From Microgenomates group bacterium (GTDB lineage Bacteria > Patescibacteriota > Microgenomatia > PFEM01 > JBNASD01), in assembly GCA_049720225.1 (NCBI GenBank), contig JBNASD010000001.1, positions 293,217-357,216 on the forward strand: 64,000 bases of DNA. Reading direction: 5' to 3'. The position numbers and the translations under genes were made by a program. Shown piece after piece: positions 689 to 59,937 of the stretch (the stretch's first letter is position 1; every line of letters starts with the position of its first letter). The notes under the pieces are model-generated. The model saw only the letters and a program-made list of their open reading frames with translations. It did not search any database and was not told the origin of the DNA.

Positions 689-1321
689 TCAATTTACCTC
701 TTTAGCAATTACTATAAGTCTTTTTAAGGTGGTTCCTGGTGGATAACAGGTTTGTAAAGTTAAAGTTTTTCCTGAAACATGATTTTTAATATAATCTTCT
801 AAAATTTCTGGAGAAACTACTTTTTTTTCTACTACATTATATATATATTTTTTTCCTTGATAAAAAATATTTATTTCGTCTCCTTTTTCTAATTTTCCAA
901 TCAAAAAAAATACCGCATTATATCGATTTACATTCCAAAAAACATCAGTGGAATGAGCAAAAAGAAATACATTACCTACCTCCCCTGGATAAGCACTTCC
1001 TCTAGAATGAGCGACTCCTTTTTTAAGAATTGATAAATACTCATTGAGATTAGTGGGATCAACTTCCGCAAAAATTTTAGCATTAACACCAATTTTGGGA
1101 ATAACAATTCCAAAGTCAGTATCTAAAGGAATTATTGTGTCTTCTTTAAAACTTGAAGAAAAAAAAGACGAAATTAAAGAAGAAGAATTGCTAAACCTTT
1201 TAAACTGATACTTAATTTCTTCTTTTAAAACTGGAAAAAAAATTAAGCCAATAATTATTACCCCACCAATTATTAAAAGATTACCTATTTTTTTCAATAA
1301 TCTAAAGTTTATTTTGGCCAA
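689..1321 (-). CDS. Sortase family transpeptidase
   Basis: It has an N-terminal TM anchor, the conserved His context NVFLFAHS, the TLxTC catalytic motif (TLTLQTCYP) and a downstream Arg (LKRLIV). It overlaps the subtilase stop by 13 nt, consistent with an operon. Confidence 0.8.
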
Positions 1322-3006
1322 TAATAACTCCGATTAGTAAGGTAACTTTTTCCATCTAAACATCTCACTTCGTAAACAGGAGTTAATGATTTTTTCCTTC
1401 TTACAGTCCAATCTTCATTATCTGCAGGATCTGAATAATAATAAACTTCTTCTTTTCGACTAACAGAGTTATAACTTAACGAACCATATCTCCCTTCTGC
1501 ACATTTACAAAATTTATTAAGTTGGTTTTGATTAAGATAAAGATATTGATATTCTTCCCTCCAGCACAAAATCGGTGAAGGTGAAGGAGGAGGAATGGGA
1601 GTTAAAGTTGGAGTAACTTCAGGCGTGGGAGTGGGTGTTGAAGTAGGACTAGTGGTGGGTAAAGGAGTAGGGGTATCACTCGCAGTAGGAGTGGGTGTAA
1701 ACTCCGGTGTTGGGATAGCCGTTGGAGTAAAACTCGGCGTGGGAAACGCCCCTAACGCAGCCGCCGCATCAACTAATCCCCATCCATAAATATCATCTCT
1801 TCCCGGTGTTCCTTTGTCTTCCGCTGTTTGTTGAAGAATATTCTTCACTTCTAAAGGACTATTTGCTCTACCGGCAGAAATTACTAATGCCGCTACCCCA
1901 GAAACATGAGGAGTAGCCATTGAAGTTCCTTGATAAAAATAATAACCCCATTCAATTTTCGCCCCCTTTTTAACAAATGTTTGTTGTAAAACACCATCAC
2001 CATAACCATCTTTATTTTGATCAATACTCGTATTTCCTCCGGGTGCTACCAAATCAACTGAAGGTCCATAATTTGAATAAGGAGCTTTTGTTTCATCATA
2101 TTGAGTTGCTCCTACCGCAATTACATAATCATCATAACTAGCCGGATATAAACAGTTTGGTTTATTATCATTTCCGCAAGCAGCAATAACGACTACCCCC
2201 TTTTGATAAGCATAAGCAACCGCTTCTTTTAATGTTTGAGAATCGGAAGTTCCTCCCAAACTTAAATTAATTATCTTGGCTTTATTATCTACCGCCCAAC
2301 GAATTCCATCGGCAACATCAGCATATGTCCCTGAACCACTCGCATCTAACACTCTTACTGGCATCAAACAACTTTTATAAGCAATTCCTGCTACCCCTAA
2401 ACTATTATTAGTACTTTGGGCAATTGTGCCGGCAACATGAGTTCCGTGACCATTTTCATCAGTAGGATCGCTATCATTATTCACAAAATCATAACCAGCA
2501 ACAAAGCAAGTATTTAGCAGATCAGTCCCCCTTCTTATTCCTGAATCAACTACTGCTACTGTTACTCCTTCTCCCTTACTAACCTCCCATGCTTTTTCCA
2601 TCTGAATTCCTCCATAGACAGAATTATCTAAATGCCATTGATAAGAATAATAAGGATCATTAGGAACCATCAATGCATAAATCAAATAATTCGGTTCCGC
2701 ATAAGCGACTAAGGGATTTTTAGAGAAAGCTTTAATTATTTCTTTTTCCTTTCCCTTAGGAACTTTTAAAACAAAGGTTTTTTCTTTTCCTATCTGTTTT
2801 TTAATTTTTCCCTGATAAAGTTCAATTAACTTTTCCGAAATTATTTGGGGAACAAAAGAATTAAATTTAACAATTATTTCTTCAGGCACCATTTTTTCTT
2901 CAGAAAAATCAAAAGAAGCAAAAGTATTCGATGAATGATTAATAACTAAAAAAGAAGTTAAGAAAAAAAGTAAAATAAAAGGGAGAAATTTTTTCATTAT
3001 TATCAT
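1309..3006 (-). CDS. Subtilisin-like serine protease (peptidase S8) with a Pro/Thr-rich linker and a small Cys-containing C-terminal domain
   Basis: It has a signal peptide and an I9-like propeptide. The catalytic triad motifs are VAVVDSGI (Asp), [10 protein letters not shown] (His) and [15 protein letters not shown] (Ser). A PTPTP-type linker is followed by about 85 aa with 4 Cys. There is no LPXTG. Confidence 0.9.
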
Positions 3007-3039
3007 TATATAAATTAGGCTTAAAAATTGTCAATCTTT

Positions 3040-4026
3040 CTAGTAACCTTCAGGATGAGTTTTGTGCCATTTCCAAGCGGTTTCCACAATTGTTTTTAAA
3101 TCTGAATATTTTGGCTCCCAATTTAAGGTTTTTTTAATTTTTTCTGCTTTGGCAATTAACTGCGCCGGATCACCTGGTCGCCGAGAACCAACAGGAGAAG
3201 GAAAATCCACTCCAGAAACCTTTTTCACCATTTCTACTACCTCTTTAACCGAAAATCCTTTTCCTGTTCCCACATTAAAATAATAAAAATCAACCGGCGC
3301 TTTCTTAAGAAAATTTAAAGCTTTAACATGGGCATCAGCTAAATCTAAAACATGAATATAATCACGAATACAAGTACCATCGGGAGTAGGATAATCATCA
3401 CCAAAAATTTGAAATTCGGGAATTTTTCCTAAAGCGGCCAAACACGCTCTGGTAATTAAATGGGTTGGTTTGGGATAATCTTGACCGAAATTTCCATCCA
3501 AAGAAGCGCCAGCGGCATTAAAATAGCGCAAAGCCACTGAAGAAAGTTTATAAGCACCAGCATACCATTTTAAAATTTTTTCCACCATCAATTTTGATTC
3601 TCCATAAGGATTAGTAGGATTTTTAGGGGAATCTTCATCTATAGGAACTACCTCTGGTTCTCCATAAACTGCCGCTGTTGAAGAAAAAACAATTTTTAAA
3701 ACCCCGTACTTAATCATTACCCGCAAAAGGTTTAAGGTACCTAATACATTGTTATAAAAATACTTCTCCGGATTTAAAACCGATTCTCCAACCTCAATAT
3801 AAGCGGCAAAATGAATTACCCCTTCTGGCTTTTCTTTCTCAAAAATTTTTTCTAGCAAATCAATATCTTTTTGCAAATTTCCTTGATAAAAGGAAGTCTC
3901 GGGAATAGCTTGAAGATGACCTGTTTCTAAACTATCAAAAACCACCGGAGTAAAACCTGCCTTTTTTAAAGCATCAACTGTAAAACTACCAATATAACCT
4001 GCACCACCGGTGACTAAAATTTTCAT
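3040..4026 (-). CDS. galE: UDP-glucose 4-epimerase
   Basis: It has the Rossmann motif VTGGAGYIGS, the catalytic YGESK (YxxxK), and an overall length and order typical of GalE. Confidence 0.85.
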   Translation of the reverse strand: MKILVTGGAGYIGSFTVDALKKAGFTPVVFDSLETGHLQAIPETSFYQGNLQKDIDLLEKIFEKEKPEGVIHFAAYIEVGESVLNPEKYFYNNVLGTLNLLRVMIKYGVLKIVFSSTAAVYGEPEVVPIDEDSPKNPTNPYGESKLMVEKILKWYAGAYKLSSVALRYFNAAGASLDGNFGQDYPKPTHLITRACLAALGKIPEFQIFGDDYPTPDGTCIRDYIHVLDLADAHVKALNFLKKAPVDFYYFNVGTGKGFSVKEVVEMVKKVSGVDFPSPVGSRRPGDPAQLIAKAEKIKKTLNWEPKYSDLKTIVETAWKWHKTHPEGY

Positions 4027-4382
4027 TTAATAATCTCCTCTTTTAAAATTTTAGCAAAAAAACCACCACTAAAATCAACCACTAAATCTTGCCATTGAAA
4101 GGTTCTGGTAGGAACAAAAATTTGATGAACCTCATCAAAAAAAGCATAACCCCAAACACAAATTAAAGGAAGAAGAAAATCTTTTTTAATTTTTCCGAAG
4201 TTAATTGCCCGAAAAAATAAAAAATAACCAATTCCATAAAAAAGAAAATGAGCTCCGCTACGAATTATTTCATCCCAAAAATTATTCTCCGCTACCCGTA
4301 AATTAGGGATTGAAGATAAATAAAAAAGAGTTCCCATCCATATTCCTACCGGAAGCCATAATTTAATTTTGACTTTTGCCAT
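4023..4382 (-). CDS. VanZ-like family membrane protein
   Basis: It is small with 3-4 TM segments. It has a DEVHQIFVPTRTFQWQDLVVDFSG motif resembling the VanZ signature (DE.HQ...R.....D...d..G). It overlaps the galE start by 4 nt. Confidence 0.55.
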   Translation of the reverse strand: MAKVKIKLWLPVGIWMGTLFYLSSIPNLRVAENNFWDEIIRSGAHFLFYGIGYFLFFRAINFGKIKKDFLLPLICVWGYAFFDEVHQIFVPTRTFQWQDLVVDFSGGFFAKILKEEIIK

Positions 4383-5544
4383 TTGATTTTTGCCCTTTTA
4401 TTTGAGTATACCAAAAATAAACTCCCCCACCAAAAAGAAGCAAAAATCCTCCTCCTATAAACAATATTCCTATCCATTTTTTATTTTTAGGCGTTTCTGG
4501 GGAAGGAAAAACCATTTCTCCTTCTTCCGTTGATTCCCACGGATAAAAAGCGGAAGTTGCCGGTTGGCTTTCTCCTAAAATTTCTCCCTCTTTAGTAGCA
4601 GTTTCTGAGGGATGAATTTTAAAAGTAGGAGTAGGAGAATTAGGTGGCAATGATATTAAAGGAATAAAAGTAGGTGTTGCTGTAGGTAAAGAGGTAGGTG
4701 AAGAATAAGAAACATTTTCTTTTTCCATTATCGGATTAACTTCTAAATTATCTCCTGCTTTAATCTCAATTCTTTCTGACCAACTTTGGTAACCCGTTTT
4801 TTGTAACTCAATTAAATGACTACCAAATCCACAATCCACATAGGTATCACATTTACAACCCTCACAAAAAGTTAAAACTTCCGGTGCATAATGGTGAATA
4901 TAAACGCCATCGACATAAATTTTAACGTTGGAAATCGTCTCTCCGTTTTTATTTTTTACCTCATTTATTTTGTAAAAGGCTTTAGGAAAAGAAGTAGGAG
5001 TAAAAGAAACGGTTATTGAAGGAGTAACACTTAAAGCCAAAGTGGGTGTGGAAGAAGGGGTAGAAATTAAACATTCATTATCAGAAGGGGTAGGATTAGA
5101 AAAAACCACCCATTGAGAACTACCATCTGGTAATCTCCCTGTAGAACTTCCTTTTGGATGCAAAGGAATTTCTGAAGAAAAATAAGTTACCGAATCTACT
5201 AAATTTCCATCTTTGTCAAAGAGTCTAATACTATCACCATCGTTATTCAGTCGATTAGCAAAATTAAACTTCCGAAAACTTTTAGGACAAATAAATCCGG
5301 TTAAAATAATTTTATTTGTTTCCGTATTATCTCTAATTATCCATCCATTTAAATCAATTTCTTTATCGCTTAAATTATAAAGTTCCACCCAATCAGGATT
5401 TTCGGTAGTTCCATCAGTTACCGCTGCGAATTCATTAATCACTATTTCCGCGGCCAAACTAGAAGAAGAAAATAAAAATAAAAAAGTTATCATTAAAAAG
5501 AAGATTTTTGTCTTTTGAAACCACCCTCTCCTCCGGGCAGGCAT
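4363..5544 (-). CDS. Cell-surface protein with a lamin-tail domain (LTD), a PEGA-like domain and a C-terminal TM anchor
   Basis: It has a signal peptide. The LTD signature is INEF...DWVELYN...DLNGW...NDGDSIRLFDKDGNLVDSVTY. S/T/P linkers follow, then a PEGA-like block (KIYVDGVYI...QKTGYQSW). The C-terminus is a hydrophobic helix plus a basic tail (KKWIGILFIGGGFLLLFGGGVYFW..KGQKSNGKSQN). There is no canonical LPXTG. Confidence 0.7.
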   Translation of the reverse strand: MPARRRGWFQKTKIFFLMITFLFLFSSSSLAAEIVINEFAAVTDGTTENPDWVELYNLSDKEIDLNGWIIRDNTETNKIILTGFICPKSFRKFNFANRLNNDGDSIRLFDKDGNLVDSVTYFSSEIPLHPKGSSTGRLPDGSSQWVVFSNPTPSDNECLISTPSSTPTLALSVTPSITVSFTPTSFPKAFYKINEVKNKNGETISNVKIYVDGVYIHHYAPEVLTFCEGCKCDTYVDCGFGSHLIELQKTGYQSWSERIEIKAGDNLEVNPIMEKENVSYSSPTSLPTATPTFIPLISLPPNSPTPTFKIHPSETATKEGEILGESQPATSAFYPWESTEEGEMVFPSPETPKNKKWIGILFIGGGFLLLFGGGVYFWYTQIKGQKSNGKSQN

Positions 5545-5547
5545 TTT

Positions 5548-6042
5548 TTAACGATTTAAAAATAGCCTTTTAATTTTTCTTTTAATTTGAATAATTATCC
5601 ATTTAGAACGTAATTCTTTTGGTAATTCATTTAATCCTTTAAAAACTCTATAAAAAGGAGCTTTTTTAATATTTAAGGCGTCTTTTATTTTTAAAGGACT
5701 TGGAGGAGTAGTTTTCTTTAACGCTTCTTTAATTTCCATCCAAGCAACCTCTAAATTTTCTTTAGGATCTGTTTTTAGTTTACCCCCCTTACTTAAACAA
5801 ATAAAAGTGATATTTAGAGTCGGAAAAAATTTAAGATTTCTAAAATAAATTCCGGAAACTTTTAATGGTTTTATTTTTATTCCTGTTTCTTCATAAGTTT
5901 CGCGAATTACCGCCTCTAATAATGATTCTCCTTTTTCTACCTTTCCTCCGGGAATAGTCCAAATTTTTAAATCTTCCCTTTTTTGCACTAAGACTTTAGT
6001 TTTATTTTTGTTAAAAACAACCGCGCTAACTCCGATATCCAT
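5548..6042 (-). CDS. NUDIX hydrolase
   Basis: The Nudix box is GGKVEKGESLLEAVIRETYEETGI (Gx5Ex7REUxEExGU). Confidence 0.85.
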   Translation of the reverse strand: MDIGVSAVVFNKNKTKVLVQKREDLKIWTIPGGKVEKGESLLEAVIRETYEETGIKIKPLKVSGIYFRNLKFFPTLNITFICLSKGGKLKTDPKENLEVAWMEIKEALKKTTPPSPLKIKDALNIKKAPFYRVFKGLNELPKELRSKWIIIQIKRKIKRLFLNR

Positions 6043-6046
6043 TTTT

Positions 6047-7264
6047 TTACTTAAATACTACAATTTTATCTATTAAACCAATACTATAAAAATCTTTAAA
6101 ATTTTTATCATAACCATGCCAAGGATCGTGCATAATATAATTATCTTGCTCTTTTTTCTTAATCACGACAAAATGTCCATCACCGCCTAAATTTAAATGG
6201 ACAATTACTGGTCGCCCCTCATTTAATTCTTTATCCATTTCGTTTATTCCTCCTACCACAATATAACTTTTTCCTGGCGGGGCTGGCCAAGGTTGAAGCA
6301 TATAAGCGGTGGTGCTAAAAAAATAAGAAGGATTAGAAGCAATTTCGATTGGGGTAATATTTTGCCCATAAAATTTATGAATCATTGCCACACTAGATAC
6401 TAAACACCCGACATCAAAGATTATTTCTGAAGACAATCCAATTGTTTTCTTTGCCCATCTTTCATCTCGTTGGCTAAAAAACCAACCGTCAGGACTATTT
6501 TGTGGCGGCAAAATTCCTCCAGTTTGTTTAGAGGTAAAACCCTTAAGGCTTCTTACCTCGGCTATTGCTTTTGCTAAAAGTTGTTGATATTTTGTTTCGT
6601 TATTTTGAGTCACTGCCAAAAGGTTTTCTTTTGCTTTTTTCTCTTGAGCCAAAATTGCCTTTTGAGATTCCAATTTCTTTTTTGCCGCCTCCAATTCTTT
6701 CTGTTTTTCTTCTTTAATATTTTTTTCATCCTCAAAATTAGTTCTCACTGTTTCTAATTGAATCATTAGTTTCTTATCATGAATTTGCATTACTTTAAGA
6801 TACTTCCAACGATTAATAAAATGAGAAAAACTATCAGAAGAAAAAAGAATAAAAACAGGGTCTATCTTTCCCTTCTTATAAGTAGCGCTTACTCGCTTCA
6901 TTAAAATTTCAGACAATTGATTTAAAGAAAGGTCTAATTTATCGATTTTTTTGTCTAAATCGACAATTTCTTTTTCTAAAATTTCTATCTGTTTAGTAGT
7001 GGCGTAAATTCGGGTGGTGGTTAAGTTAATCGCCGCATCAAATTTGGCAATCTCATTTTTTAAGGTTTGTTTTTGCTGACCAACTTGAGATAAAAGATTA
7101 GAAAAAATTCTCTCGCATTCTTCTACTTCTTCTACCTTAAGCTCTCCTTTACCAATTTTATTCTCGCATTCTTCTTGGGTAATTGCTTCAATTTTTCCCG
7201 AAAAAAAACTAAAAATTAAACAAAAAATTAATAAAAAAAGAAGCTTTCTGAAAATTTTCTCCAT
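6047..7264 (-). CDS. Secreted coiled-coil protein with a C-terminal papain-like (C39-like) cysteine peptidase domain; a PcsB/EnvC-type putative FtsEX-coupled cell-wall hydrolase
   Basis: It has a signal peptide and about 220 aa of heptad-rich coiled coil with many E/K/Q residues. The C-terminus has Q..W...GC (QRDERW...DVGCLVSSVAM) followed by His/Asp (GHFVVI, MHDPWHG), as in the Peptidase_C39_2 fold. It lies immediately downstream of ftsE-ftsX on the same strand. Confidence 0.6.
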   Translation of the reverse strand: MEKIFRKLLFLLIFCLIFSFFSGKIEAITQEECENKIGKGELKVEEVEECERIFSNLLSQVGQQKQTLKNEIAKFDAAINLTTTRIYATTKQIEILEKEIVDLDKKIDKLDLSLNQLSEILMKRVSATYKKGKIDPVFILFSSDSFSHFINRWKYLKVMQIHDKKLMIQLETVRTNFEDEKNIKEEKQKELEAAKKKLESQKAILAQEKKAKENLLAVTQNNETKYQQLLAKAIAEVRSLKGFTSKQTGGILPPQNSPDGWFFSQRDERWAKKTIGLSSEIIFDVGCLVSSVAMIHKFYGQNITPIEIASNPSYFFSTTAYMLQPWPAPPGKSYIVVGGINEMDKELNEGRPVIVHLNLGGDGHFVVIKKKEQDNYIMHDPWHGYDKNFKDFYSIGLIDKIVVFK

Positions 7265-7265
7265 T

Positions 7266-8135
7266 TCATTTAAGATATTTTCTTACTGCTAGCCAACTTC
7301 CTAAACAACCAATTAAAACTCCCAACGTCAATTCTCCTCCCAAAACCATCAACATAAAAATAACGGAAACAGGCAAAAGCGATATTCCTTCTAAAAATTC
7401 TTTCAAAAATGGTGTCGAATAAAGTAAAAGAAGAAAAGCTAATCCCCACCCCAAAATTCCACCTAATACTCCGTAAAAAATTCCCTCTAGAATAAAAGGA
7501 AAATAAATATAGCCCTTAGTAGCACCCAAAAGTTGAAGAATTTCTACCTCTTTTTTCCTTAAAGCAACTTTCATTCCAATAATTACTAAAATTACTAAAA
7601 AGGAAACTAAACTTAAAAAAGAAATCATTCCTATTCCAATTTTTCTTAAGTTATCAGTCCAATTTTTTAATGATTTTACAATGTCTTCCTGATAAACCAC
7701 CTCCTCCACGAAAATACTTTCTTTTAAAATTTTTGCTACTTCTCCTAAATAAGAAATATCAGTGGTAGAAACTTCTAAAGAGGCAGGTAAAATATTAGCA
7801 GTTACCATTTCTAAAAGTAGGGGGTCGTTTTTATTTTGTTCTTGATAAATTTTTAAAGCTTCTTCTTTGGAAACATACTTTATTTCTTTTATTTTTCCAG
7901 TCGCTAACAAACGAGACTTTAATTCATTTATTTGTCCTTCAGTTGCTTCATCTTTGAAAAAAGCAGTTACCTGAGGACGAGTTTCAAAAAATTGAAGAAT
8001 CTTTTGTGAACCTACTGCTGACAAAAAAAGGAGTGTAGAAATAAAAAAAGTCAATGTCATTATCCCAATTGCCGCTAAGGCTTGATAAGGAGAACGACGA
8101 ATATGTTTCCAGGTTGTCGCCAAATGATCTTTCAT
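7266..8135 (-). CDS. ftsX: Cell division ABC transporter permease FtsX
   Basis: It has one N-terminal TM, a large extracytoplasmic domain, then three C-terminal TMs. It is adjacent to ftsE. Confidence 0.8.
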   Translation of the reverse strand: MKDHLATTWKHIRRSPYQALAAIGIMTLTFFISTLLFLSAVGSQKILQFFETRPQVTAFFKDEATEGQINELKSRLLATGKIKEIKYVSKEEALKIYQEQNKNDPLLLEMVTANILPASLEVSTTDISYLGEVAKILKESIFVEEVVYQEDIVKSLKNWTDNLRKIGIGMISFLSLVSFLVILVIIGMKVALRKKEVEILQLLGATKGYIYFPFILEGIFYGVLGGILGWGLAFLLLLYSTPFLKEFLEGISLLPVSVIFMLMVLGGELTLGVLIGCLGSWLAVRKYLK

Positions 8136-8141
8136 AAAAAA

Positions 8142-8813
8142 CTATTTCTCTCCTTTCTTTTTATCGGCAACAACTTTTCCTTTATCTAATTCAATAATTC
8201 TTTTTTTAAACCTTTTTACTATTTCTACATTATGAGTAGCCATAATTACTATTTTTCCTCCTTGATTAATTTTTTCTAATAAGTCAACTATCTGTTGGCC
8301 AGTACTAATATCTAAATTTCCCGTTGGTTCATCGGCAATTATAATTTCTGGATCACCAACTATTGCTCGGGCAATACAAACTCGCTGCAACTCTCCTCCT
8401 GCTAATTGAGCGGGAAAAAAATTAGCTCTTTCGCTTAAACCAACTTGTTCTAAGGTTTCTTTAACTTTTTGTTCAATTTCTTCCTCTTTCTTTTTTAAAA
8501 TTTTTAATGGCAAAGCAATGTTTTCAAAAACGGTTTGATCGGGCAAAAGCTTTAAATCTTGAAAAATCATTCCTATTTTTCTTCGATAGTAAGGGATTTT
8601 TTTTCGTGGCACCGAAGCTAAATTTACCCCTGCAATTTCTATTTCTCCTTCGGTAGGAAGATATTCCCTTAAAATTAAGCGGGCAATTGTTGTTTTTCCC
8701 GCTCCCGAAGGTCCCATCAAAAATACAAATTCACCCGGTTCGATTTCAAAACTAACGTTTTCTAAAGCAGTAATCTCGCCAAATTTTTTGGTAACATTTT
8801 TAAAACTAATCAT
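8142..8813 (-). CDS. ftsE: Cell division ATP-binding protein FtsE
   Basis: Walker A is GPSGAGKTT, the ABC signature is LAGGELQRV, and Walker B is [11 protein letters not shown]. At 223 aa it has the size typical of FtsE. Confidence 0.85.
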
Positions 8814-8833
8814 TTTATAATTTTGGGAATTAA

Positions 8834-9325
8834 TTAAATCCCCTCAGGGCAGGAATTTAACACCTTTACCCAACCCACATCTAATAACCACGCCGCTTTT
8901 TGTCCTTTAAAGGTTTCTCCTAAAATTTCTACACATTTACCCACAAATAAATCTAAATCTACCATTGAACTGGTTAAATAAGCAGTTTGACTTGGTCCCC
9001 CGGGACGAATTAATTTATGAGTCCCCTCCGGAATATCTTGATTGTCATTTTTTTCAATTCTTCCAAAAGCCTGGTCTTTAAAAGTTTTTGGATCTTTTAT
9101 TCCCATTTCCTGAGGAATTTTTTTTCCTTCCTTATTAACAAATTCTTTTTTTTCTGATATTCCCACTCTACCTTTTTCTTTATTCGCCAAAAACCAACCA
9201 GTAGCCCCTCCCGCTAAAATAATCACCAAAATTATTAAAGCAGGCAATAAAATTTCTCTAAAAAAGGGTTTTTTCTCCTCTTTTGGAGAATCACTTAGGG
9301 TTTTAACTAATTTTTCTTCCTCCAT
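8834..9325 (-). CDS. Hypothetical membrane-anchored protein
   Basis: It has a single TM (LLPALIILVIILAGGATGWFL). An SD (AAGGAGG) sits upstream. I recognise no family. Confidence 0.4.
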   Translation of the reverse strand: MEEEKLVKTLSDSPKEEKKPFFREILLPALIILVIILAGGATGWFLANKEKGRVGISEKKEFVNKEGKKIPQEMGIKDPKTFKDQAFGRIEKNDNQDIPEGTHKLIRPGGPSQTAYLTSSMVDLDLFVGKCVEILGETFKGQKAAWLLDVGWVKVLNSCPEGI

Positions 9326-9367
9326 TTTTCCTCCTTTTTATTTAAAAGGATATCACAAAAGTTAATC

Positions 9368-10393
9368 TTAAGACAATTGGCGAATTTCTGCTTCGATAAA
9401 ACCATCAATTTCTCCATTTAAAATTGCCTCCGGGTCATTACTTTCATAACCAGTTCTTAAATCTTTAACCATTTTATAAGGATGCAAAACATAAGATCTA
9501 ATTTGTGTTCCCCAACTTGCTTTTGTCTTTCCTTGTTTTAATTGTCTTTCTTCTTCCGCTCTTTTTTCTTCCTCTTTTTGCCAAAGTTTTGCTTGTAATA
9601 TTTGTAAAGCAATTTTGCGATTTTGCGCTTGATATCTTTCACTTTGAGAAGTAACCACAATTCCTGTAGGCTTGTGTCTTAATCTTACCGCCGTGGAAAC
9701 TTTTTGAACATTTTGTCCTCCCTGAGAAGAAGCTCGAAAAAACTCCCATTCTAAATCTTCCTCTTTAATTTCAATTTCTTTTTCTTCTAATTGGGGTAAA
9801 ACTTCCACCAATGCAAAAGAGGTTTGTCTTAATCTATCGGCATTAAAAGGAGATTGGCGCACTAACCGATGAGTTCCTGCTTCATGTTTTAAATATCCAT
9901 AAGCGTATGGGGCGTCAATTTTGAAAGTTACACTTTTAATTCCCGCTTCCTCTCCCGGGGTTTCGTCAATTATTTCATAATCCCAATTCCTTTTTTCAAA
10001 ATAACGAAGGTACATTCTTTTTAACATTTCTGCCCAATCCATTGCTTCTGTTCCTCCTTGACCGGCATGGATGGAAAAAATTGCTCCCGAGGAATCATAT
10101 TTTCCTCCTAAAAAAGTTTTTAATTCTAATTTCTGAATTTCTTTTTCCGCTTCTTGTTCTTTTCCTAAGGAAACTAAATTCTCTAATTTTTCTATTTCTT
10201 CTATTTCCTTTTGTAAATCTGCTAGTCTTTTCATTTTTTTACTTGCTTCTTCATGATCTTGCCAAAATTCAGGATTTGCTGAAAGTCTTTGAATTTCCTG
10301 GATTTCTTGAAAAATCTGATCAAAATTAAGCTTTCTTTTTATTTCTTCTATTCTTTGTTTTAAGTCTTTCATTCTTTTAATACCTCCTGACAA
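9368..10393 (-). CDS. prfB: Peptide chain release factor 2
   Basis: It has the SPF tripeptide (SPFNADRLRQTSF) and the GGQ motif (GGQNVQKVSTAVRLRH). The N-terminus reads through where E. coli has its +1 frameshift site, so no programmed frameshift is encoded here. Confidence 0.9.
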   Translation of the reverse strand: MSGGIKRMKDLKQRIEEIKRKLNFDQIFQEIQEIQRLSANPEFWQDHEEASKKMKRLADLQKEIEEIEKLENLVSLGKEQEAEKEIQKLELKTFLGGKYDSSGAIFSIHAGQGGTEAMDWAEMLKRMYLRYFEKRNWDYEIIDETPGEEAGIKSVTFKIDAPYAYGYLKHEAGTHRLVRQSPFNADRLRQTSFALVEVLPQLEEKEIEIKEEDLEWEFFRASSQGGQNVQKVSTAVRLRHKPTGIVVTSQSERYQAQNRKIALQILQAKLWQKEEEKRAEEERQLKQGKTKASWGTQIRSYVLHPYKMVKDLRTGYESNDPEAILNGEIDGFIEAEIRQLS

Positions 10394-10761
10394 AATTCTT
10401 TTAAAACTGCTTTTTTAATTTCTTCCAATTGTTCTTGGGGAAGTTGTCTTAAAATTTCAATAATTTTTTCAGTTTCAATTTTTATTTCATTATTTTCTTT
10501 AGAGGAAGAGTTTTCCTCACTTTTCTTTAATTGCGGAATTTTTTCTTTTAGATTATTATTTTCAGGAATAATTTTTATCGCCTCACCTAAAACTTTTTCT
10601 CCCCAATCTTCTATTTTTCCCTTAATTTCTTCTGTGGGTAAAGAAACTGGTTTTTCTTTTTTTGCTCTTTGCCATTCAGAAAATACTTTAGGAAATAAAG
10701 AAAAAATTATTCCTCCCGCTAAAACTAAAATTATTATTCTTTTTATTCTTTCAAACCACAT
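10369..10761 (-). CDS. Hypothetical N-terminally anchored protein
   Basis: It has a single N-terminal TM and a charged E/K-rich tail. It overlaps the prfB start. Confidence 0.4.
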   Translation of the reverse strand: MWFERIKRIIILVLAGGIIFSLFPKVFSEWQRAKKEKPVSLPTEEIKGKIEDWGEKVLGEAIKIIPENNNLKEKIPQLKKSEENSSSKENNEIKIETEKIIEILRQLPQEQLEEIKKAVLKEFCQEVLKE

Positions 10762-10789
10762 AGGTTATAATTTATTATAATTCAAACAT

Positions 10790-11872
10790 ATGGAGATTAT
10801 AAACACTAAAACTATCAATCCTCAGATAATTAAAAAAATTATCAATGTTCTTAAAAATGGAGGGGTAATTATTTATCCCACCGAAACATGTTATGGAATT
10901 GGAGCGGATGCTACTAATCCTAAGGCAGTAGAAAAAGTTCTTAATTTTAAAGGAGAAAGAAAAGGGAAACCGATTTTAATTGCGGTAGCTGATAAAAAAA
11001 TGGCAGAAGAATATGTAGAAATTAACGAAATCGCCGAAAATCTTTATCAAAAATTTCTTCCCGGACCGGTCGCGGTCGTTTCTAAAAGCAAAGGAAAAGT
11101 AGCCCCGGGTATTGAATCTCCTACCAAAACTTTAGGAATTAGAATCCCTAATTATCCTTTAATTTTAGAAATTATTCGCCAGTTTGGAAAACCAATTACT
11201 TCTACCTCCGCCAATCCTTCAGGAAAAAAACCACCCTATTCTTTAAAAGATTTTTTAAAATACACAAGTGAAAAAAGAAGAGAATTAATAGATATTTTTT
11301 TAGATGGAGGTAAACTTCCTCCTAATCCCCCCTCTACGGTGGTGGATACCACTCTTCAAGAACCAACGGTTTTACGCCAAGGAGAAATTTCCATCCCTGA
11401 TCTCCCCGGACAAAATTTTGTATCCAATTCTGAAGAAGAAACTAAAAATATCGCCAAAACAATTTTTGGCCGTTTACAAAATTTACTCAATTCTTATTGT
11501 TTAATTTTCGCTCTCCAAGGAGAATTAGGAGCAGGAAAAACTCAATTTGCAAAAGGATTAGGAGAGGTTTTGGGAATAAAGGAAAACATTAATTCTCCTA
11601 CCTTTGTTTTAATTAAAGAATATAAATTTAAAATACTTGAACATTCTGGAACTTTTTTTCATATCGATACATGGCGAATTAAAACAGAAGAAGAGCTTTT
11701 AGATCTTGGTTTAGAAAAAATGATTAAACCAGGAAATATTGTCGCCATCGAATGGCTTCAAAAAGTTCGTGATCTTTTGGAAAAAATTAGTAAAGAAAAA
11801 AAAGCAAAAGTAATTTGGATAACAATTGAAATTTTAAGCGAAAATAAAAGAAGAATAAAATATAAAATTTAA
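10790..11872 (+). CDS. tsaC-tsaE: Fused L-threonylcarbamoyladenylate synthase (TsaC/YrdC domain) and t6A P-loop protein TsaE
   Basis: The N-terminal roughly 200 aa is a YrdC fold (IIYPTETCYGIGADATNPKAVEKV...KPILIAVAD). The C-terminal roughly 150 aa is TsaE/YjeE (LQGELGAGKTQFAKGLGEVLGI...SPTFVLIKEY...HIDTWRI). Confidence 0.8.
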   Translation: MEIINTKTINPQIIKKIINVLKNGGVIIYPTETCYGIGADATNPKAVEKVLNFKGERKGKPILIAVADKKMAEEYVEINEIAENLYQKFLPGPVAVVSKSKGKVAPGIESPTKTLGIRIPNYPLILEIIRQFGKPITSTSANPSGKKPPYSLKDFLKYTSEKRRELIDIFLDGGKLPPNPPSTVVDTTLQEPTVLRQGEISIPDLPGQNFVSNSEEETKNIAKTIFGRLQNLLNSYCLIFALQGELGAGKTQFAKGLGEVLGIKENINSPTFVLIKEYKFKILEHSGTFFHIDTWRIKTEEELLDLGLEKMIKPGNIVAIEWLQKVRDLLEKISKEKKAKVIWITIEILSENKRRIKYKI

Positions 11873-15223: not shown

Positions 15224-16279
15224 ATGACAAATATCAACATCAAAAAAGGATTTACTATTTTAGCGATTGATACTAGTTGTGACGAAACCTCGGTAGCAAT
15301 CACCGAAGATGATAAGGTTTTAGTAAACATTGTTTCCTCACAAATTAAATATCACCAAAAATACGGAGGAGTCGTTCCCCATTTAGCCCGTCAAATTCAC
15401 CAAAAATTTCTTCCTTTAGCAATTAAAGAAGCATTGAAAAGAGGAGGAAAAAAATTTAAAGATATTAATTCTTTAGCAGTAACTATCGGTCCAGGACTAG
15501 CCCCGGCGTTAGAAGTAGGAATTGCAGAAGCAAAAAAACTTGCCCATATTTATCAATTACCAATAATTGCTGTCAATCATATGGAAGCTCATCTTTTATC
15601 TTCTTTTGCAAAAAACTCTAAAGGAAAAGGTGGATTTTCACCTGTCTTTCCAATCATTGGTCTTTTAGTTTCTGGTGGCCATACTCAATTAGTGTTAATG
15701 AAAAACTTCGGTGATTATAAACTCTTAGGAGAAACTGTTGACGATGCCGCAGGAGAAGCTTTTGATAAGGTAGCTAAAATGCTTAATTTAGGTTATCCTG
15801 GTGGTCCAATTATTTCTCAATTAGCCAAAGAGGGAAAACCAAAATATCAACTTCCTATTCCGATGATTAAATCAGGAGATTTAAACTTCAGTTTTTCTGG
15901 ACTTAAAACTGCCTGTTTGTATTTTTTGGAAAAAATTCCGGAAGAGAAAAAAAATCGCCAATTTATTTGTGATTTTTGCGCTTCTTTTGAAAAAACAGTC
16001 GCCCTTGCTTTAGCGATTAAATTAGAAATGGCAATTAAAAAATATCATCCTCACCAAATCGTTTTAGGAGGTGGAGTGATTAACAATTTAACTATCAGAA
16101 AGGAAATTCGCAAAGTGGCAAAAAAATTTAATCTTAAAGTATTTATTCCCTATACATCAAAACTTTTAACCGATAACGCAGGAATGATAGGAGTTTGCGC
16201 TTGGTATCAGGCAAAGAAAGGAGATTTTGTAAAAGATATCAAAAAATTAGATCGCTTACCAAATCTAAACTTTAAATAA
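15224..16279 (+). CDS. tsaD: tRNA N6-adenosine threonylcarbamoyltransferase
   Basis: It has ILAIDTSCDETSVAI, the HMEAHL metal-binding His pair and VSGGH, with the length typical of Kae1/TsaD. Confidence 0.9.
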   Translation: MTNINIKKGFTILAIDTSCDETSVAITEDDKVLVNIVSSQIKYHQKYGGVVPHLARQIHQKFLPLAIKEALKRGGKKFKDINSLAVTIGPGLAPALEVGIAEAKKLAHIYQLPIIAVNHMEAHLLSSFAKNSKGKGGFSPVFPIIGLLVSGGHTQLVLMKNFGDYKLLGETVDDAAGEAFDKVAKMLNLGYPGGPIISQLAKEGKPKYQLPIPMIKSGDLNFSFSGLKTACLYFLEKIPEEKKNRQFICDFCASFEKTVALALAIKLEMAIKKYHPHQIVLGGGVINNLTIRKEIRKVAKKFNLKVFIPYTSKLLTDNAGMIGVCAWYQAKKGDFVKDIKKLDRLPNLNFK

Positions 16280-48277: not shown

Positions 48278-51200
48278 TCAACCAAAGATATTTTCCCAAA
48301 CCATATTTTTAATTCTTTCGGCAATTTTAAAATTGACAATTCCCTCAAGGGCTTCATCTATAAATTTATTTATTCTTTCATACTCTTTTTTAATAATCGT
48401 TAAGTCATTTTTAAATCTATTTTCAGGAATTATAACTTCCTCTCGTTTCATAAGAACAAATAATTGCAGTAATTCTGCCTCATCTTGGCTTTGACAGTCA
48501 ATTTTTTGTTTACCGCAAACTAACTGCCAACCTAGCAAACTTTGAATTACTTGAGGTTTCTGTTTGCTATCGGAGGGCAATTTTACTAATTTTCCTTTTT
48601 TATTCTTTAAAGGATTATACTTTTGCCAAATAGCAGTTAATGGAGTTTTGCCAATCCATTTTAAAATTTGCTCTACCTGTTTTTCCTCAACCACCTTTTT
48701 TTTGGATTTATTTTTTGAGGTAACACTTTTAGCTCGTTTAAGACGGGAGGAAACTAAATCAATAATTGCTCGATAAACCTCTAACTGCTCTTCTTCAGTT
48801 AGACCCAAAATATCACCCATAATGATTTGGTCAAGTTTTCTAAGTTGAGGGTTAATTTTGTGTAAAAAAACTTCATCTAAAGTACTTGCTCTTAATAAAG
48901 CAAAAATATTCTCCATTAAAGTAGAAGACAATTTGCTAAGCAAGATTTGCACCTCAGTTATTTTGGATTCTTCGATCACTTTGGGATTAGGCAATAATAT
49001 TTTTTTAAATTCGTAGGTTTGAATTTTTAATAGACCACCTCCAAAAGTAGTTCTGCCTTCTATGTTTTCAAAAAACCAAAACAAAGATGAATTTATCAAA
49101 GGGGCTATGAGGTAATTCGTGTGTATTTCCTGAAAATCATCGCTTACATTAACACTACCAACATATCCTCTTCCTATATCATGAATAAGGTAATTGATAT
49201 TAAGATTTGTTATTCTCCTTTTTCCTAAATCATACCATCTTTTCCTGCTCGCACATGTTGGTCTTTTGTGAAACCCTTTTCTTTCACCTTCTTTGATATA
49301 CTTTAAAACATTAGTCCCTTTGAGTTCTTCTTTATCTTTATGAATCATCAAAACCCTATATTTTAGGTCCTTGGGGTTAATGACAATCGACTTGCATTCG
49401 CGGGGAGATTTAATAATATAGTTTGGCACCCAATTACCCTTTTCATCTTGATGCATCCAAAATTCTTTTTCAATACCTCTCCTTTTAATTTCCTCTTCGG
49501 TGAGATAAAAAAATTCATTAGCTCCTGTGGTGATACCCCTGCGAACATCAGCTACTTCTTTAAGAGGCACTAATTTGTCTTTGCATTTTTCCAGAATTTT
49601 AAAAAAGATTTGCGGAGCCCTGATGTACTTTCCCCATTTTGAACCAACATAAGTTTGCGTTTCTTCATCAAATCCTTCATCCCATAGTTCTTTTTGTAAT
49701 TTTGGGTAAATTCTTATCTTTTCGTCTTCAAAATATTTATCATGAGCTAAGATTAAATCCTTAAGTTGACTGATTTTTTGCCATCTTTCTTTTTGAAGTG
49801 CTTGATTGGTAGAAAAAATCGGGATAAAATCAGAAAGTGGTTTTTTAAGCTGAACAAAGCGAACTAAATTATTATCTCTTTCTTCCTTGTTTTTTTCTCC
49901 CTCGCATTTTTCCAAAATTACAATACAGGTATTAATATCCGCATCTTCAAACCAGCGCTCGACTTTTGATTCGATAATGGCAATAATTTTGGCATTTTTG
50001 AGAAAAAATTCTTGAAGACCTTTGCCGTAATCAACATCAAGCCAGGAGTTGGAAACAATAAACCCAAACATCCCTCCATTTTGGAGAAATTTGAAACCGT
50101 GAACAAAAAAATAAGCGTGAATGCCTGCTCTCTTAGAAATTGTTGCCAGTTTTTTTCCTCGAGTATCATAAATAGCTGATTCTATTAATTTTTCTTTGTA
50201 TCGCTCTCCCTTGCCTGAAATATCTTCAATTTCTTCCTGCCGAGTGTAAGGAGGATTACCAACAACGGCATTAACTATTCTTGGGTAAGGTATTTTCTGA
50301 ATTGTACCGTCATATCTTTTAACTTCTTTTGCGTCTATATTTGGATACTCTGCCAATCCACCAAGTTTTAACTCAAAAAAATCATTTTGAAAAATTTGCG
50401 GATAGTTATCTTTTTCTCTTAAATCTCTTATGACTAAATTAATTGTTGCAAGATGAGCAGGAAATTTAGCAATATCTACGCCCCATAAAGAAGAAAGTAT
50501 TTCTTTGTGCGTCAATGTTGGGTCAAGAAGTCTTTTAAGAAAATAGCTTTGGATTAAAAAGGTACCTGTGCCACAAGCAGGGTCTAAAACCGTATCTTTG
50601 GTAGGATTTTTGAGACAAAAATTAAGAATTAAATCAACAACATCAGTGCGAGTAAAATATTGACCAAGATTGTGTCTTTCTGCTGCAGGAATTAAATTTT
50701 CAAATATCTTTCCGATAGTATCAGGAGTATCTTTTACCAACTGACCCCAATCGTATTTATTTAAAGCCTCAATAAGGTCAATTATCGTTTGAATTACTGC
50801 CTGATTGTTAGTTGAGAAAGCCAATGTATCAATAAAATCGGTAGAATAAATAGTCTCATAATCAATATTTAAAACATGCTGGAATTTTGCTTGCAGTTCT
50901 GTTTGGAGCTGACCGCCTGTGGCTAAATCACGAGGTATTTTTAGCTCCGGGATTCGTGCAGTTTGTGCCCGAAGGATCTCATAAAAGAATATTTTATTTA
51001 CCAAAAGATAAGCAGTTTGTCGAGCGGCTTTTTCAAAATCATAAGTCTCAGGGAATGGTGGTAAACTCCAAAACTGTTCAGAAAACCATTTTCTAAGTTT
51101 TTTTCTAAAATCGGTATCACTTTGATATTTTTCTTCAATGACAGGAAGATAAAGTCTTGTTAAAATTTTGATTTTCTCTAAAAGTCTAAAAATTAAAATT

Positions 51201-51736
51201 TCATCTAGTGGTAATTTTTTAGGCTTTTCTTTTTTGAAGTATAAAGCATAAAGGTCCAAAAGTATTTTTTTGAGTTCTTTTTGAATAGGCAATTGATAAG
51301 AGAAGTTTTCCAAATAGTCTAAATTTTCAATATTAGAAAGATTGTATTTAGCAATAATTTGGTCTTCTTCTTTTTTTAGATTGTTAACTTTTGCGGTATC
51401 CCAAAGAATAAGAGTCTTAAAATTAGAGGTAGCGAAGTATGGAGACTTTCTTAAGGTTGCCTTTTTACGCGCCGGTTCTTTTAGATTCTCCCCATCAAAA
51501 ACGTCATAAAAAGGAGGCTTAAATTCAATTAGCAATAATGTTCTGGTGTTTTCGGGCGAATCATAAAGAATACAGTCCGGTCTTTTTCCATCCACTCCTT
51601 TCTTTTCTATCCTTGCTTGACCAAATGGTAAATTTTCTTCTCTAATAATTTGGTTTATCCATTCAGCAATAATAGCAGCAGCGCTCCATTCTGTATGATG
51701 ATCAATAATTTCAAAAGGGTTTACGAATTTATTCAT
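48278..51736 (-). CDS. Type IIG-like restriction-modification enzyme: N-terminal PD-(D/E)xK nuclease fused to a gamma-class N6-adenine DNA methyltransferase and specificity region
   Basis: The N-terminus has RPDCILYD...LLLIEFK (D..ExK). Mid-protein it has SAM motif I VLDPACGTGTFL upstream of catalytic motif IV VVGNPPY. The C-terminal half, about 550 aa, is unassigned (TRD/helical). Total length is 1152 aa. Confidence 0.75.
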   Translation of the reverse strand: MNKFVNPFEIIDHHTEWSAAAIIAEWINQIIREENLPFGQARIEKKGVDGKRPDCILYDSPENTRTLLLIEFKPPFYDVFDGENLKEPARKKATLRKSPYFATSNFKTLILWDTAKVNNLKKEEDQIIAKYNLSNIENLDYLENFSYQLPIQKELKKILLDLYALYFKKEKPKKLPLDEILIFRLLEKIKILTRLYLPVIEEKYQSDTDFRKKLRKWFSEQFWSLPPFPETYDFEKAARQTAYLLVNKIFFYEILRAQTARIPELKIPRDLATGGQLQTELQAKFQHVLNIDYETIYSTDFIDTLAFSTNNQAVIQTIIDLIEALNKYDWGQLVKDTPDTIGKIFENLIPAAERHNLGQYFTRTDVVDLILNFCLKNPTKDTVLDPACGTGTFLIQSYFLKRLLDPTLTHKEILSSLWGVDIAKFPAHLATINLVIRDLREKDNYPQIFQNDFFELKLGGLAEYPNIDAKEVKRYDGTIQKIPYPRIVNAVVGNPPYTRQEEIEDISGKGERYKEKLIESAIYDTRGKKLATISKRAGIHAYFFVHGFKFLQNGGMFGFIVSNSWLDVDYGKGLQEFFLKNAKIIAIIESKVERWFEDADINTCIVILEKCEGEKNKEERDNNLVRFVQLKKPLSDFIPIFSTNQALQKERWQKISQLKDLILAHDKYFEDEKIRIYPKLQKELWDEGFDEETQTYVGSKWGKYIRAPQIFFKILEKCKDKLVPLKEVADVRRGITTGANEFFYLTEEEIKRRGIEKEFWMHQDEKGNWVPNYIIKSPRECKSIVINPKDLKYRVLMIHKDKEELKGTNVLKYIKEGERKGFHKRPTCASRKRWYDLGKRRITNLNINYLIHDIGRGYVGSVNVSDDFQEIHTNYLIAPLINSSLFWFFENIEGRTTFGGGLLKIQTYEFKKILLPNPKVIEESKITEVQILLSKLSSTLMENIFALLRASTLDEVFLHKINPQLRKLDQIIMGDILGLTEEEQLEVYRAIIDLVSSRLKRAKSVTSKNKSKKKVVEEKQVEQILKWIGKTPLTAIWQKYNPLKNKKGKLVKLPSDSKQKPQVIQSLLGWQLVCGKQKIDCQSQDEAELLQLFVLMKREEVIIPENRFKNDLTIIKKEYERINKFIDEALEGIVNFKIAERIKNMVWENIFG

Positions 51737-58884: not shown

Positions 58885-59937
58885 ATGAAAAATTTTCTTT
58901 TCAAGAATAAAAAAATTTTTTGGGGAGTAGGAGGATTAATTTTAACTTTTTTACTCGTTTTCTTTTTAAAAATAAAACCCTCTCTCCAGTCCCCTGAAGA
59001 AAAATACCAAACCACCAAAGTAAGAAGAGGAAATCTTAAAATAACTGTTTCTGCTTCAGGAAAAATAGAGGCAGAAAAGCAGGTCACTCTTCGATTTCAA
59101 ACTGGAGGATTACTAAGTTGGGTAGGGGTAAGAAAGGGAGATAAAGTTAAAAAATGGCAAACAATTGCCTCTTTAGATACCCGAGAGTTAGAAAAAGACC
59201 TTAAAAAAAGACTCTTGGCTTATATGAATCAACGATGGGACTTTGAACAAACTCAAGATAATTATAATGTCCACGGAAAACCTTTAAACGAACTTATCTT
59301 AACTGAAGAAGAAAAAAGGATTTTAGAAAAAGCACAATTCAATCTCGATAGTACTGTTTTAGACGTAGAAATTAGAGATCTTTCGATAAAATTGGCAAAA
59401 TTAGTTTCTCCAATAGAGGGAATTGTTGTGGAAGCAGAACCTTCTTTACCTGGCGTAAATATTCTTCCTACTAACTCCTATTTCACCATTATCGATCCCT
59501 CGCAAATGAAATTTGTGGCGGATGTAGACGAAGTGGACATTGGAAAAGTAAAACTAGATCAAAAAGCAATTATTACTTTAGATGCTTACGAAAATCAGAC
59601 TTTTGAAGGAAAAGTCAAAAAAATCTCTTTTGCAGCAATTACAACCAAAGGAGGAGGAACCGCTTTTCCAGTAGAAATTTCTTTACCAGAAAACCATGAA
59701 GAAAAATTTAAATGGGGAATGAATGGGGATGTAGAAATTATTATCGAGGAAGTAGATAACGCATTAATAATTCCCTCCGAAGCTATAATCAAAAAAGAAG
59801 GAAAAAATTACGTAAAGGTATTGGAGAAGGGAAAAATTAAAGAAAAAGAAATCACTACCGGTTTGGAAACAGAAGAAGAAATAGAAATTCTTTCCGGCCT
59901 TCAGGAAGGAGATATAATTATCCTTTCAGAAAAGTAA
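58885..59937 (+). CDS. Efflux transporter periplasmic adaptor (HlyD/MacA family)
   Basis: It has an N-terminal TM, a coiled-coil hairpin, beta-barrel/lipoyl-like segments (ASGKIEAEKQVTL...IASLDTRELEKDL...), and a C-terminal domain. Confidence 0.75.
   Translation: MKNFLFKNKKIFWGVGGLILTFLLVFFLKIKPSLQSPEEKYQTTKVRRGNLKITVSASGKIEAEKQVTLRFQTGGLLSWVGVRKGDKVKKWQTIASLDTRELEKDLKKRLLAYMNQRWDFEQTQDNYNVHGKPLNELILTEEEKRILEKAQFNLDSTVLDVEIRDLSIKLAKLVSPIEGIVVEAEPSLPGVNILPTNSYFTIIDPSQMKFVADVDEVDIGKVKLDQKAIITLDAYENQTFEGKVKKISFAAITTKGGGTAFPVEISLPENHEEKFKWGMNGDVEIIIEEVDNALIIPSEAIIKKEGKNYVKVLEKGKIKEKEITTGLETEEEIEILSGLQEGDIIILSEK

Follow-up and report, generated by a model that had tools for sequence, protein, structure and literature searches.

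The 64,000-nucleotide window analyzed here, a stretch of contig JBNASD010000001.1 from a Microgenomates group bacterium with a G+C content of about 32%, carries on its minus strand the genes ftsE and ftsX and directly behind them a gene for a protein of 405 amino acids that combines a coiled coil with a C39-like cysteine peptidase domain (Table 1). An original prediction, made from the letters of this sequence, had already given the order ftsE, ftsX, coiled-coil gene and had described the last gene as lying immediately downstream of ftsX. Both points proved accurate, with all three genes at the predicted positions, only 6 bases between ftsE and ftsX and the ATG of the peptidase gene located 1 base past the TGA stop codon of ftsX. 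The ftsE product scored above the cutoff of the NCBIfam FtsE model TIGR02673 (277.1 bits vs. 264.85) and matched Pfam ABC_tran with 129.8 bits. The ftsX product contains the Pfam domains FtsX_ECD (residues 55-146, 65.2 bits) and FtsX (residues 170-289, 47.9 bits), both above their gathering thresholds, and its best NCBIfam matches, FtsX_Gneg and FtsX_Gpos, reached 176.5 bits compared to cutoffs of 255 and 225, as could be expected of a divergent lineage. Homologues of the 405-residue protein amounted to 462 at E <= 1e-3, so that these are genuine genes and not chance open reading frames; wherever the source of a homologue is named, it belongs to the Patescibacteria, which points to the candidate phyla radiation and probably to the Microgenomates/Shapirobacteria group as the origin of the window. 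A promoter and terminator scan of positions 4000-11000 yielded no more sites than shuffled sequence, and the sole terminator-like site on the minus strand of this region falls inside the peptidase gene and was disregarded.

Table 1. Features of the ftsEX locus and of the surface protein genes downstream of it (positions refer to the window)
Feature	Position	Strand	Remarks
ftsE	8142-8813	minus	223 aa; TIGR02673, ABC_tran; ATPase of the FtsEX complex
ftsX	7266-8135	minus	289 aa; FtsX_ECD and FtsX domains; permease-like subunit with extracytoplasmic domain
Coiled-coil C39-like peptidase gene	6047-7264	minus	405 aa plus stop
Signal-peptide-like N-terminus (residues 1-27, MEKIFRKLLFLLIFCLIFSFFSGKIEA)	7184-7264	minus	Sequence inspection
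Coiled-coil region (residues 28-246)	6527-7183	minus	CC_PcsB, EnvC model alignment, Foldseek
C39-like (Peptidase_C39_2) papain-fold catalytic domain (residues 250-405)	6050-6517	minus	
Codon of predicted nucleophile Cys287	6404-6406	minus	Codon verified; alignment conservation
Codon of predicted general base His364	6173-6175	minus	Codon verified; alignment conservation
Codon of predicted third triad residue Asp380	6125-6127	minus	Codon verified; alignment conservation
Small membrane protein gene	8834-9325	minus	163 aa; between prfB and ftsE
prfB (release factor 2)	9368-10393	minus	Upstream member of the conserved gene string
Sortase	689-1321	minus	
S8 subtilase with fervidolysin-type prodomain	1309-3006	minus	
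Lamin-tail-domain/PEGA protein	4363-5544	minus	393 aa; Pro/Thr/Ser-rich linkers, C-terminal membrane anchor

The first 27 residues of the 405-residue protein are hydrophobic, end with KIEA and have the appearance of the signal peptide that the original prediction had postulated. A hydrophobic N-terminus is present in every aligned homologue as well, and the protein is predicted to be exported. Two cysteines, C33 and C50 (7114-7168, minus strand), are located between this element and the coiled coil, recur in many homologues and may form a disulfide stapling the N-terminal helices. In an AlphaFold model of the full-length protein based on 41 homologues (predicted local distance difference test, pLDDT, 90.4; predicted template modeling score, pTM, 0.68), two long helices (residues 68-131 and 146-219) form an antiparallel hairpin with a short structured tip between them, followed by a helix comprising residues 223-246 and a globular domain (residues 250-405). 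The long helices thus fall within residues ~28-246, in agreement with the roughly 220 residues of coiled coil that had been foreseen. Pfam CC_PcsB matched the end of the first helix, the tip and the start of the second helix (residues 107-174) with 29.5 bits (cutoff 27) and was found at E <= 1e-3 in 11 of the 41 family members. Within the coiled coil, conservation is highest in this tip region, which has the motif YKKGKIDP...SF..F...YKYL.

The NCBIfam models for EnvC, PcsB and RipC all align in register with the coiled coil, the best match being that of EnvC over residues 60-232 (E 5.6e-9). All three nevertheless stay far below their cutoffs, since the window protein has another type of catalytic domain: the EnvC equivalog NF008644 scored 35.5 bits (cutoff 270) and the PcsB equivalog NF046104 16.4 bits (cutoff 450), in both cases from the coiled coil only, and the RipC model 14.7 bits (cutoff 425). 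The same three proteins head the list of structures retrieved from the PDB by Foldseek with the full-length model, namely PcsB (4cgk), RipC in the FtsEX complex of Mycobacterium tuberculosis (8idc_E) and EnvC (8tzl_E and 6tpi_A). A search of PDB sequences with the full 405-residue protein returned weak coiled-coil matches only, with EnvC at E 0.1.

With regard to the C-terminal domain, a papain-like peptidase resembling Peptidase_C39_2 had been proposed from a Q...W...GC motif followed by a His and an Asp. Pfam Peptidase_C39_2 (PF13529) indeed matched residues 283-382 with 30.2 bits (cutoff 24) and was also matched by 34 of the 41 homologues, while the match to Peptidase_C39 (PF03412) is partial and confined to residues 351-385. 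In an alignment of 120 C39-bearing sequences, Q265, R266, D267, W270, G286 and C287 were invariant; 119 of the sequences retain H364 and 118 retain D380, and the single sequence without H364 is incomplete. The motif and the retention of Cys and His are therefore confirmed across the aligned sequences. The domain has the papain-like fold and the conserved residues (Gln, Cys, His and Asp) that characterize PF13529, and the 405-residue protein is a member of this Pfam family. Within the triad, 77 residues separate Cys from His and 16 residues His from Asp, a spacing nearly identical to that in the triads of ComA and PCAT1.

Profile and structure searches with residues 250-405 agree in placing the domain on the C39-like branch of the papain-like peptidases. 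In the structure comparison, the highest values were obtained for the putative C39-like peptidase of Bacillus anthracis (3erv, 12.8 with 130 residues aligned), the pseudomurein endoisopeptidase PeiR (12.7), PCAT1 (12.3), a CdiA toxin domain (12.1) and ComA (11.7), compared to 7.0 for CHAP (5d74) and 6.7 for the NlpC/P60-like Tse1. As the values for C39-type structures are well above those for CHAP and NlpC/P60, the domain is truly C39-like and not a divergent form of either of the latter. PeiR was also the first hit when the profile of the domain was run against PDB sequences (E 0.011). The subfamily is large, with 773 representatives at 50% clustering and E <= 1e-3 and 159 at E <= 1e-10. Among the best 150, the domain is almost solely C-terminal in proteins of ~390-450 residues, i.e., it occurs in the same architecture. 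Homologues are named "C39 family peptidase" in the databases or, by the Joint Genome Institute (JGI), "peptidoglycan hydrolase CwlO-like protein."

Conservation of the triad also bears on the question whether the protein acts as an enzyme at all. EnvC demonstrates that an FtsEX partner may carry a non-catalytic C-terminal domain (PMC11627006), and the EnvC model is the best NCBIfam match of the coiled coil, so a catalytically silent activator of a separate hydrolase was considered. Retention of Gln265 and Cys287 in 120, of His364 in 119 and of Asp380 in 118 of 120 sequences is not what one would expect of a degenerate domain, and the probability of a silent activator appears close to negligible. 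The invariant triad argues for an enzyme, and an inactive activator of EnvC type was rejected on this ground. Likewise rejected was a classical bacteriocin-processing C39 peptidase, in this case on topology and architecture: the domain forms the C-terminal part of a protein that starts with a signal peptide and continues with a coiled coil, and no transporter is fused to it.

Conservation of the gene order was assessed by a scan of one genome per GTDB species, which yielded 246 relatives, from which 80 loci were kept. The synteny of ftsEX and the C39-like gene proposed earlier extends to these relatives: ftsX is located upstream and on the same strand in 77 of the 80 loci, the gap to the C39-like gene being estimated to lie within ~200 bases in 74 of the 77, and ftsE comes before ftsX in 68 of the 70 loci whose upstream sequence amounts to 2.6 kilobases (kb) or more. 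Upstream prfB was found in 59 and the small membrane protein in 63 of the 80 loci. The loci span Shapiro-, Woese-, Levy-, Roizman-, Collier-, Pace- and Cerribacteria as well as WWE3 and Saccharibacteria. Three loci are without ftsX upstream, one of which (L023) lies on a contig that has no upstream sequence. The other two, L050 and L051, lend themselves to a different view, in which the protein is a wall hydrolase independent of FtsEX and its adjacency reflects nothing but co-expression, as for RipA, the coiled-coil NlpC/P60 protein of Corynebacteriales. A coiled-coil hydrolase independent of FtsEX is on record (PMC9897464). Nevertheless, we regard this view as distinctly improbable, given that the order is kept with near-zero spacing in 77 of 80 loci over deep lineages of the Patescibacteria and that the best-conserved part of the coiled coil, the CC_PcsB tip motif, corresponds to the site at which EnvC and RipC touch FtsX in their structures (PMC11627006).

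Two further loci, L014 and L080, have ~0.8 and 1.4 kb, respectively, between ftsX and the C39-like gene, which suggests an inserted gene. Many of the records containing the operon (L004, L006, L009, L012, L031, L039 and others) are titled "uncultured Gammaproteobacteria" or "uncultured Pseudomonadales bacterium"; these titles look like placeholders or wrong taxonomic labels.

The coiled coil is not restricted to proteins with a C39-like domain. Locus L081, on the contig of a close relative, shows the gene order Sua5/TsaE, small open reading frame, prfB (product with PCRF and RF-1 domains), small membrane protein, ftsE, ftsX and, in the last position, a gene for protein P0120 (L081:5001-6197). 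The neighboring gene products are 62-76% identical to their counterparts in the window, and the coiled coil of P0120 is 69% identical to that of the window protein over residues 27-241. Similarity stops abruptly after the coiled coil, and a Peptidase_M23 domain follows instead, i.e., the module has been swapped on an orthologous scaffold. A search with the coiled coil alone retrieved nine proteins, five of them with M23, a set that is unsuited to counting how frequent each module is and was probably limited by poor performance of the word index on coiled-coil sequence. The M23 domains of P0120, P0266, P0268, P0270 and P0271 are circularly permuted: the HxH segment (CSTGTHLHFE, positions 58-96 of the Pfam profile) precedes the HxxxD segment (FHTGIDIS...YYLHVNY, profile positions 2-53), which forms the extreme C-terminus. 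Since all zinc-ligand motifs are kept, the permuted domains may be active.

A third module is found in Southlakia epibionticum, a cultivated member of the Saccharibacteria, whose corresponding operon consists of prfB, a hypothetical gene of 486 base pairs, ftsE, ftsX and SEML1_0236 (PMC10633639, supplementary tables). SEML1_0236 is a protein of 384 amino acids in which residues 31-260 form a helical hairpin and which also contains a CHAP domain, and transposon sequencing (Tn-seq) classified ftsE, ftsX and SEML1_0236 as essential and the small hypothetical gene SEML1_0233 as non-essential (PMC10633639). Judged by this published description, SEML1_0236 shares operon and phylum with the protein studied here and differs by its CHAP domain. 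In other Saccharibacteria (loci L063, L065 and L075), ftsEX is adjoined by the C39 version. Depending on the lineage, a single scaffold at a single place of the operon thus carries a C39-like, an M23 or a CHAP domain. This exchange of modules is the strongest argument that the C39-like domain does the job of the known FtsEX partners, and together with the PDB matches of the full-length model it supports the original view of the protein as an analogue of PcsB and EnvC.

Output domains already described for FtsEX partners are LytM, CHAP and NlpC/P60, the latter in CwlO and RipC (PMC11627006). PcsB of Streptococcus pneumoniae, an FtsEX-activated coiled-coil CHAP hydrolase, shares with the window protein the signal peptide, a hairpin of ~200 residues with the CC_PcsB signature and a C-terminal cysteine hydrolase of the papain clan with an intact catalytic center, and it is the top Foldseek match. 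EnvC from Escherichia coli and Vibrio cholerae (6tpi, 8tzl) has a coiled-coil hairpin in register over ~175 residues; its LytM domain, however, is degenerate and activates amidases, whereas the conserved triad of the window protein leads us to expect a direct enzyme. By analogy, helix 223-246 may be equivalent to the restraining arm of EnvC. The FtsEX-activated NlpC/P60 endopeptidases RipC (M. tuberculosis) and CwlO (Bacillus subtilis) have the overall logic in common, chain E of 8idc being among the top structural matches, but contain NlpC/P60 in place of the C39-like domain. The catalytic domain of the window protein therefore lies outside the established types of FtsEX partners (CHAP, NlpC/P60, LytM/M23), and the protein as a whole, though expected to work like PcsB, CwlO and RipC, stands outside those families. 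That a new catalytic module is involved had been anticipated correctly in the original prediction, which termed it a third solution; as NlpC/P60 is already established in CwlO and RipC, it has to be counted as the fourth. In the literature searched, we found no paper on FtsEX with a C39-type partner, and a 2024 review of FtsEX (PMC11627006) does not contain the term "C39." The pairing is new to that literature, labels for the protein are already present in databases, and the system represents a new variant of a known mechanism.

Taken together, it is probable that the 405-residue protein is an exported wall hydrolase that is activated by FtsEX and cuts the cell's own peptidoglycan for separation of the daughter cells. 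EnvC, PcsB and RipC bind the extracytoplasmic domains of FtsX via the middle of their coiled-coil hairpin; a helix or the coiled coil itself keeps them autoinhibited until ATP binding by FtsE releases them (PMC11627006). In a corresponding manner, the exported protein would dock with its hairpin tip on the extracytoplasmic domains of the FtsX dimer and would be held in an inactive state, probably by a coiled-coil helix such as 223-246, comparable to the restraining arm of EnvC or the alpha-4 helix of PcsB. Binding and hydrolysis of ATP by FtsE at the division site would then release the peptidase domain. The freed peptidase, with Cys287, His364 and Asp380 as putative triad and Gln265 as presumed oxyanion residue, would attack the peptidoglycan of the cell itself at its peptide stems or cross-links, allowing the daughter cells to separate. 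The mode of action would be that of PcsB, CwlO and RipC, exerted by another catalytic module of the papain clan.

Peptidoglycan is the expected substrate because the domain is exchanged with M23 and CHAP, because it is close to PeiR and because C39-like domains occur in wall-degrading proteins of phages. The PeiR group cleaves the Ala-epsilon-Lys cross-link of pseudomurein (PMC4592898), and PeiR itself lyses the walls of methanogens (PMC6189367). PeiR, PeiW and PeiP (8z4h) differ from the window protein in that they are lysins of methanogen viruses that act on archaeal pseudomurein, bear other accessory domains and are not coupled to FtsEX. The B. anthracis peptidase 3erv is a stand-alone Peptidase_C39_2 domain without coiled coil; domain N5 of mycobacteriophage LysA matches this C39-like peptidase (PMC3314691), and Peptidase_C39_2 is listed among the enzymatic domains of lysins from phages of Gram-positive bacteria (PMC8223927). 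The closest viral structures in BFVD belong to tape-measure, phi29 gp13-like and "lysozyme" multidomain proteins, which are tail-associated or of lysin type.

The main alternative is a protease that is tethered by FtsEX but acts on a protein or peptide instead of peptidoglycan, with surface proteins, pilins and double-glycine leaders as candidate substrates. It draws on the fact that the characterized C39 enzymes cleave leader peptides and that we found no member of PF13529 with a defined substrate. On the other hand, classical C39 domains, as in PCAT1 and ComA, are cytoplasmic N-terminal domains of ATP-binding cassette (ABC) exporters with specificity for double-glycine leaders, whereas the domain described here follows a signal peptide and a coiled coil of PcsB type; the orthologous coiled coil carries the cell wall hydrolase modules M23 or CHAP in relatives; PeiR, an endoisopeptidase of cell walls, is equally close; and no candidate substrate gene is conserved in the operon. 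A processing protease is therefore unlikely. Still less probable, to a degree that we would call very unlikely, is a peptidase that is anchored by FtsEX but directed against the wall of a host bacterium rather than against the cell's own septum. The essentiality of the CHAP counterpart in co-culture, together with ftsE and ftsX, does not discriminate between self and host as target. FtsEX is, however, a division-site complex in all systems studied (PMC11627006), and no immunity-like gene is conserved beside the C39-like gene.

Several observations weigh against an FtsEX-activated peptidoglycan hydrolase. The best-characterized C39 relatives, PCAT1 and ComA, cleave double-glycine leader peptides and not cell walls, and no member of PF13529 with a biochemically proven peptidoglycan substrate was found in the literature. 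Among phage sequences, PHROGs gave one marginal endolysin family (E 1e-3), and a tblastn search of 50,697 phage records produced only four marginal matches, all unannotated and from Listeria phages; as evidence for a lysin function, the phage sequence matches are weak. The Foldseek E-values to PcsB, RipC and EnvC are weak as well (2e-3 to 4e-2), although the probabilities are high; such E-values are usual for coiled coils. Finally, L050:6001-7245 and L051:6001-7236, from Microgenomates-type genomes, are full-length coiled-coil C39 genes without ftsE and ftsX upstream. In L050, the genes adjoining the C39 gene are located on the opposite strand. The two genes may be paralogues or part of a rearranged operon.

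The activation of coiled-coil wall hydrolases by FtsEX is central to bacterial cell division and has been studied in depth, with three known output domains. With a C39-like module as the fourth, the mechanical switch would prove to be independent of the enzyme it controls. This module is conserved over much of the Patescibacteria, and on an orthologous scaffold its place is taken by M23 or CHAP. A wall function would also be suggested for the large family PF13529, for which no defined biochemical function was found, and a likely septal hydrolase would be identified for a vast and little-understood group of bacteria with minimal genomes. As Saccharibacteria are genetically tractable and some of them have the C39 version beside ftsEX (L063, L065 and L075), the idea can be tested directly. 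A more far-reaching proposal, which we consider possible though on the doubtful side, is that the slot behind ftsX in Patescibacteria is a swappable cassette, in which an FtsX-docking coiled coil is combined with a C39-like, a permuted M23 or a CHAP domain, the choice tracking the chemistry of the own or the host wall, and the C39-like domain acts as an endo(iso)peptidase on cross-links. If so, PF13529 would gain its first defined biochemical role, and much of the candidate phyla radiation would depend on the C39-like module as its main septal hydrolase. In the scanned parts of the window, a Ddl-like ligase and a sortase were encountered and no other wall hydrolase was seen.

Among the neighboring genes, the one between prfB and ftsE encodes a protein that has a single transmembrane helix and whose C-terminal domain of ~110 residues is conserved, with the motifs G.H.L.RPGG.SQT.YLTSS..DLD and W.LDVGWV. 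The protein matched no Pfam or NCBIfam family and may be an accessory factor of FtsEX. Upstream of prfB, an open reading frame of 360 residues (10790-11872, plus strand) appears to be a fusion of a domain of Sua5/YciO/YrdC type with TsaE, both Pfam families being called in L081, and TsaD is encoded nearby (15224-16279). The operon is followed closely by clustered genes for cell-surface proteins at positions 689-5544 on the minus strand (Table 1), and a homologue of the Lamin-tail-domain protein encoded there follows the C39-like gene in many related loci. In more distant parts of the window, a second ABC3-type system (58885-61149, plus strand), which consists of an HlyD-like adaptor and a MacB-like permease (MacB_PCD), is distinct from FtsX, and a fused restriction-modification enzyme of 1152 amino acids resembling Eco57I and MmeI is encoded at positions 48278-51736 on the minus strand.

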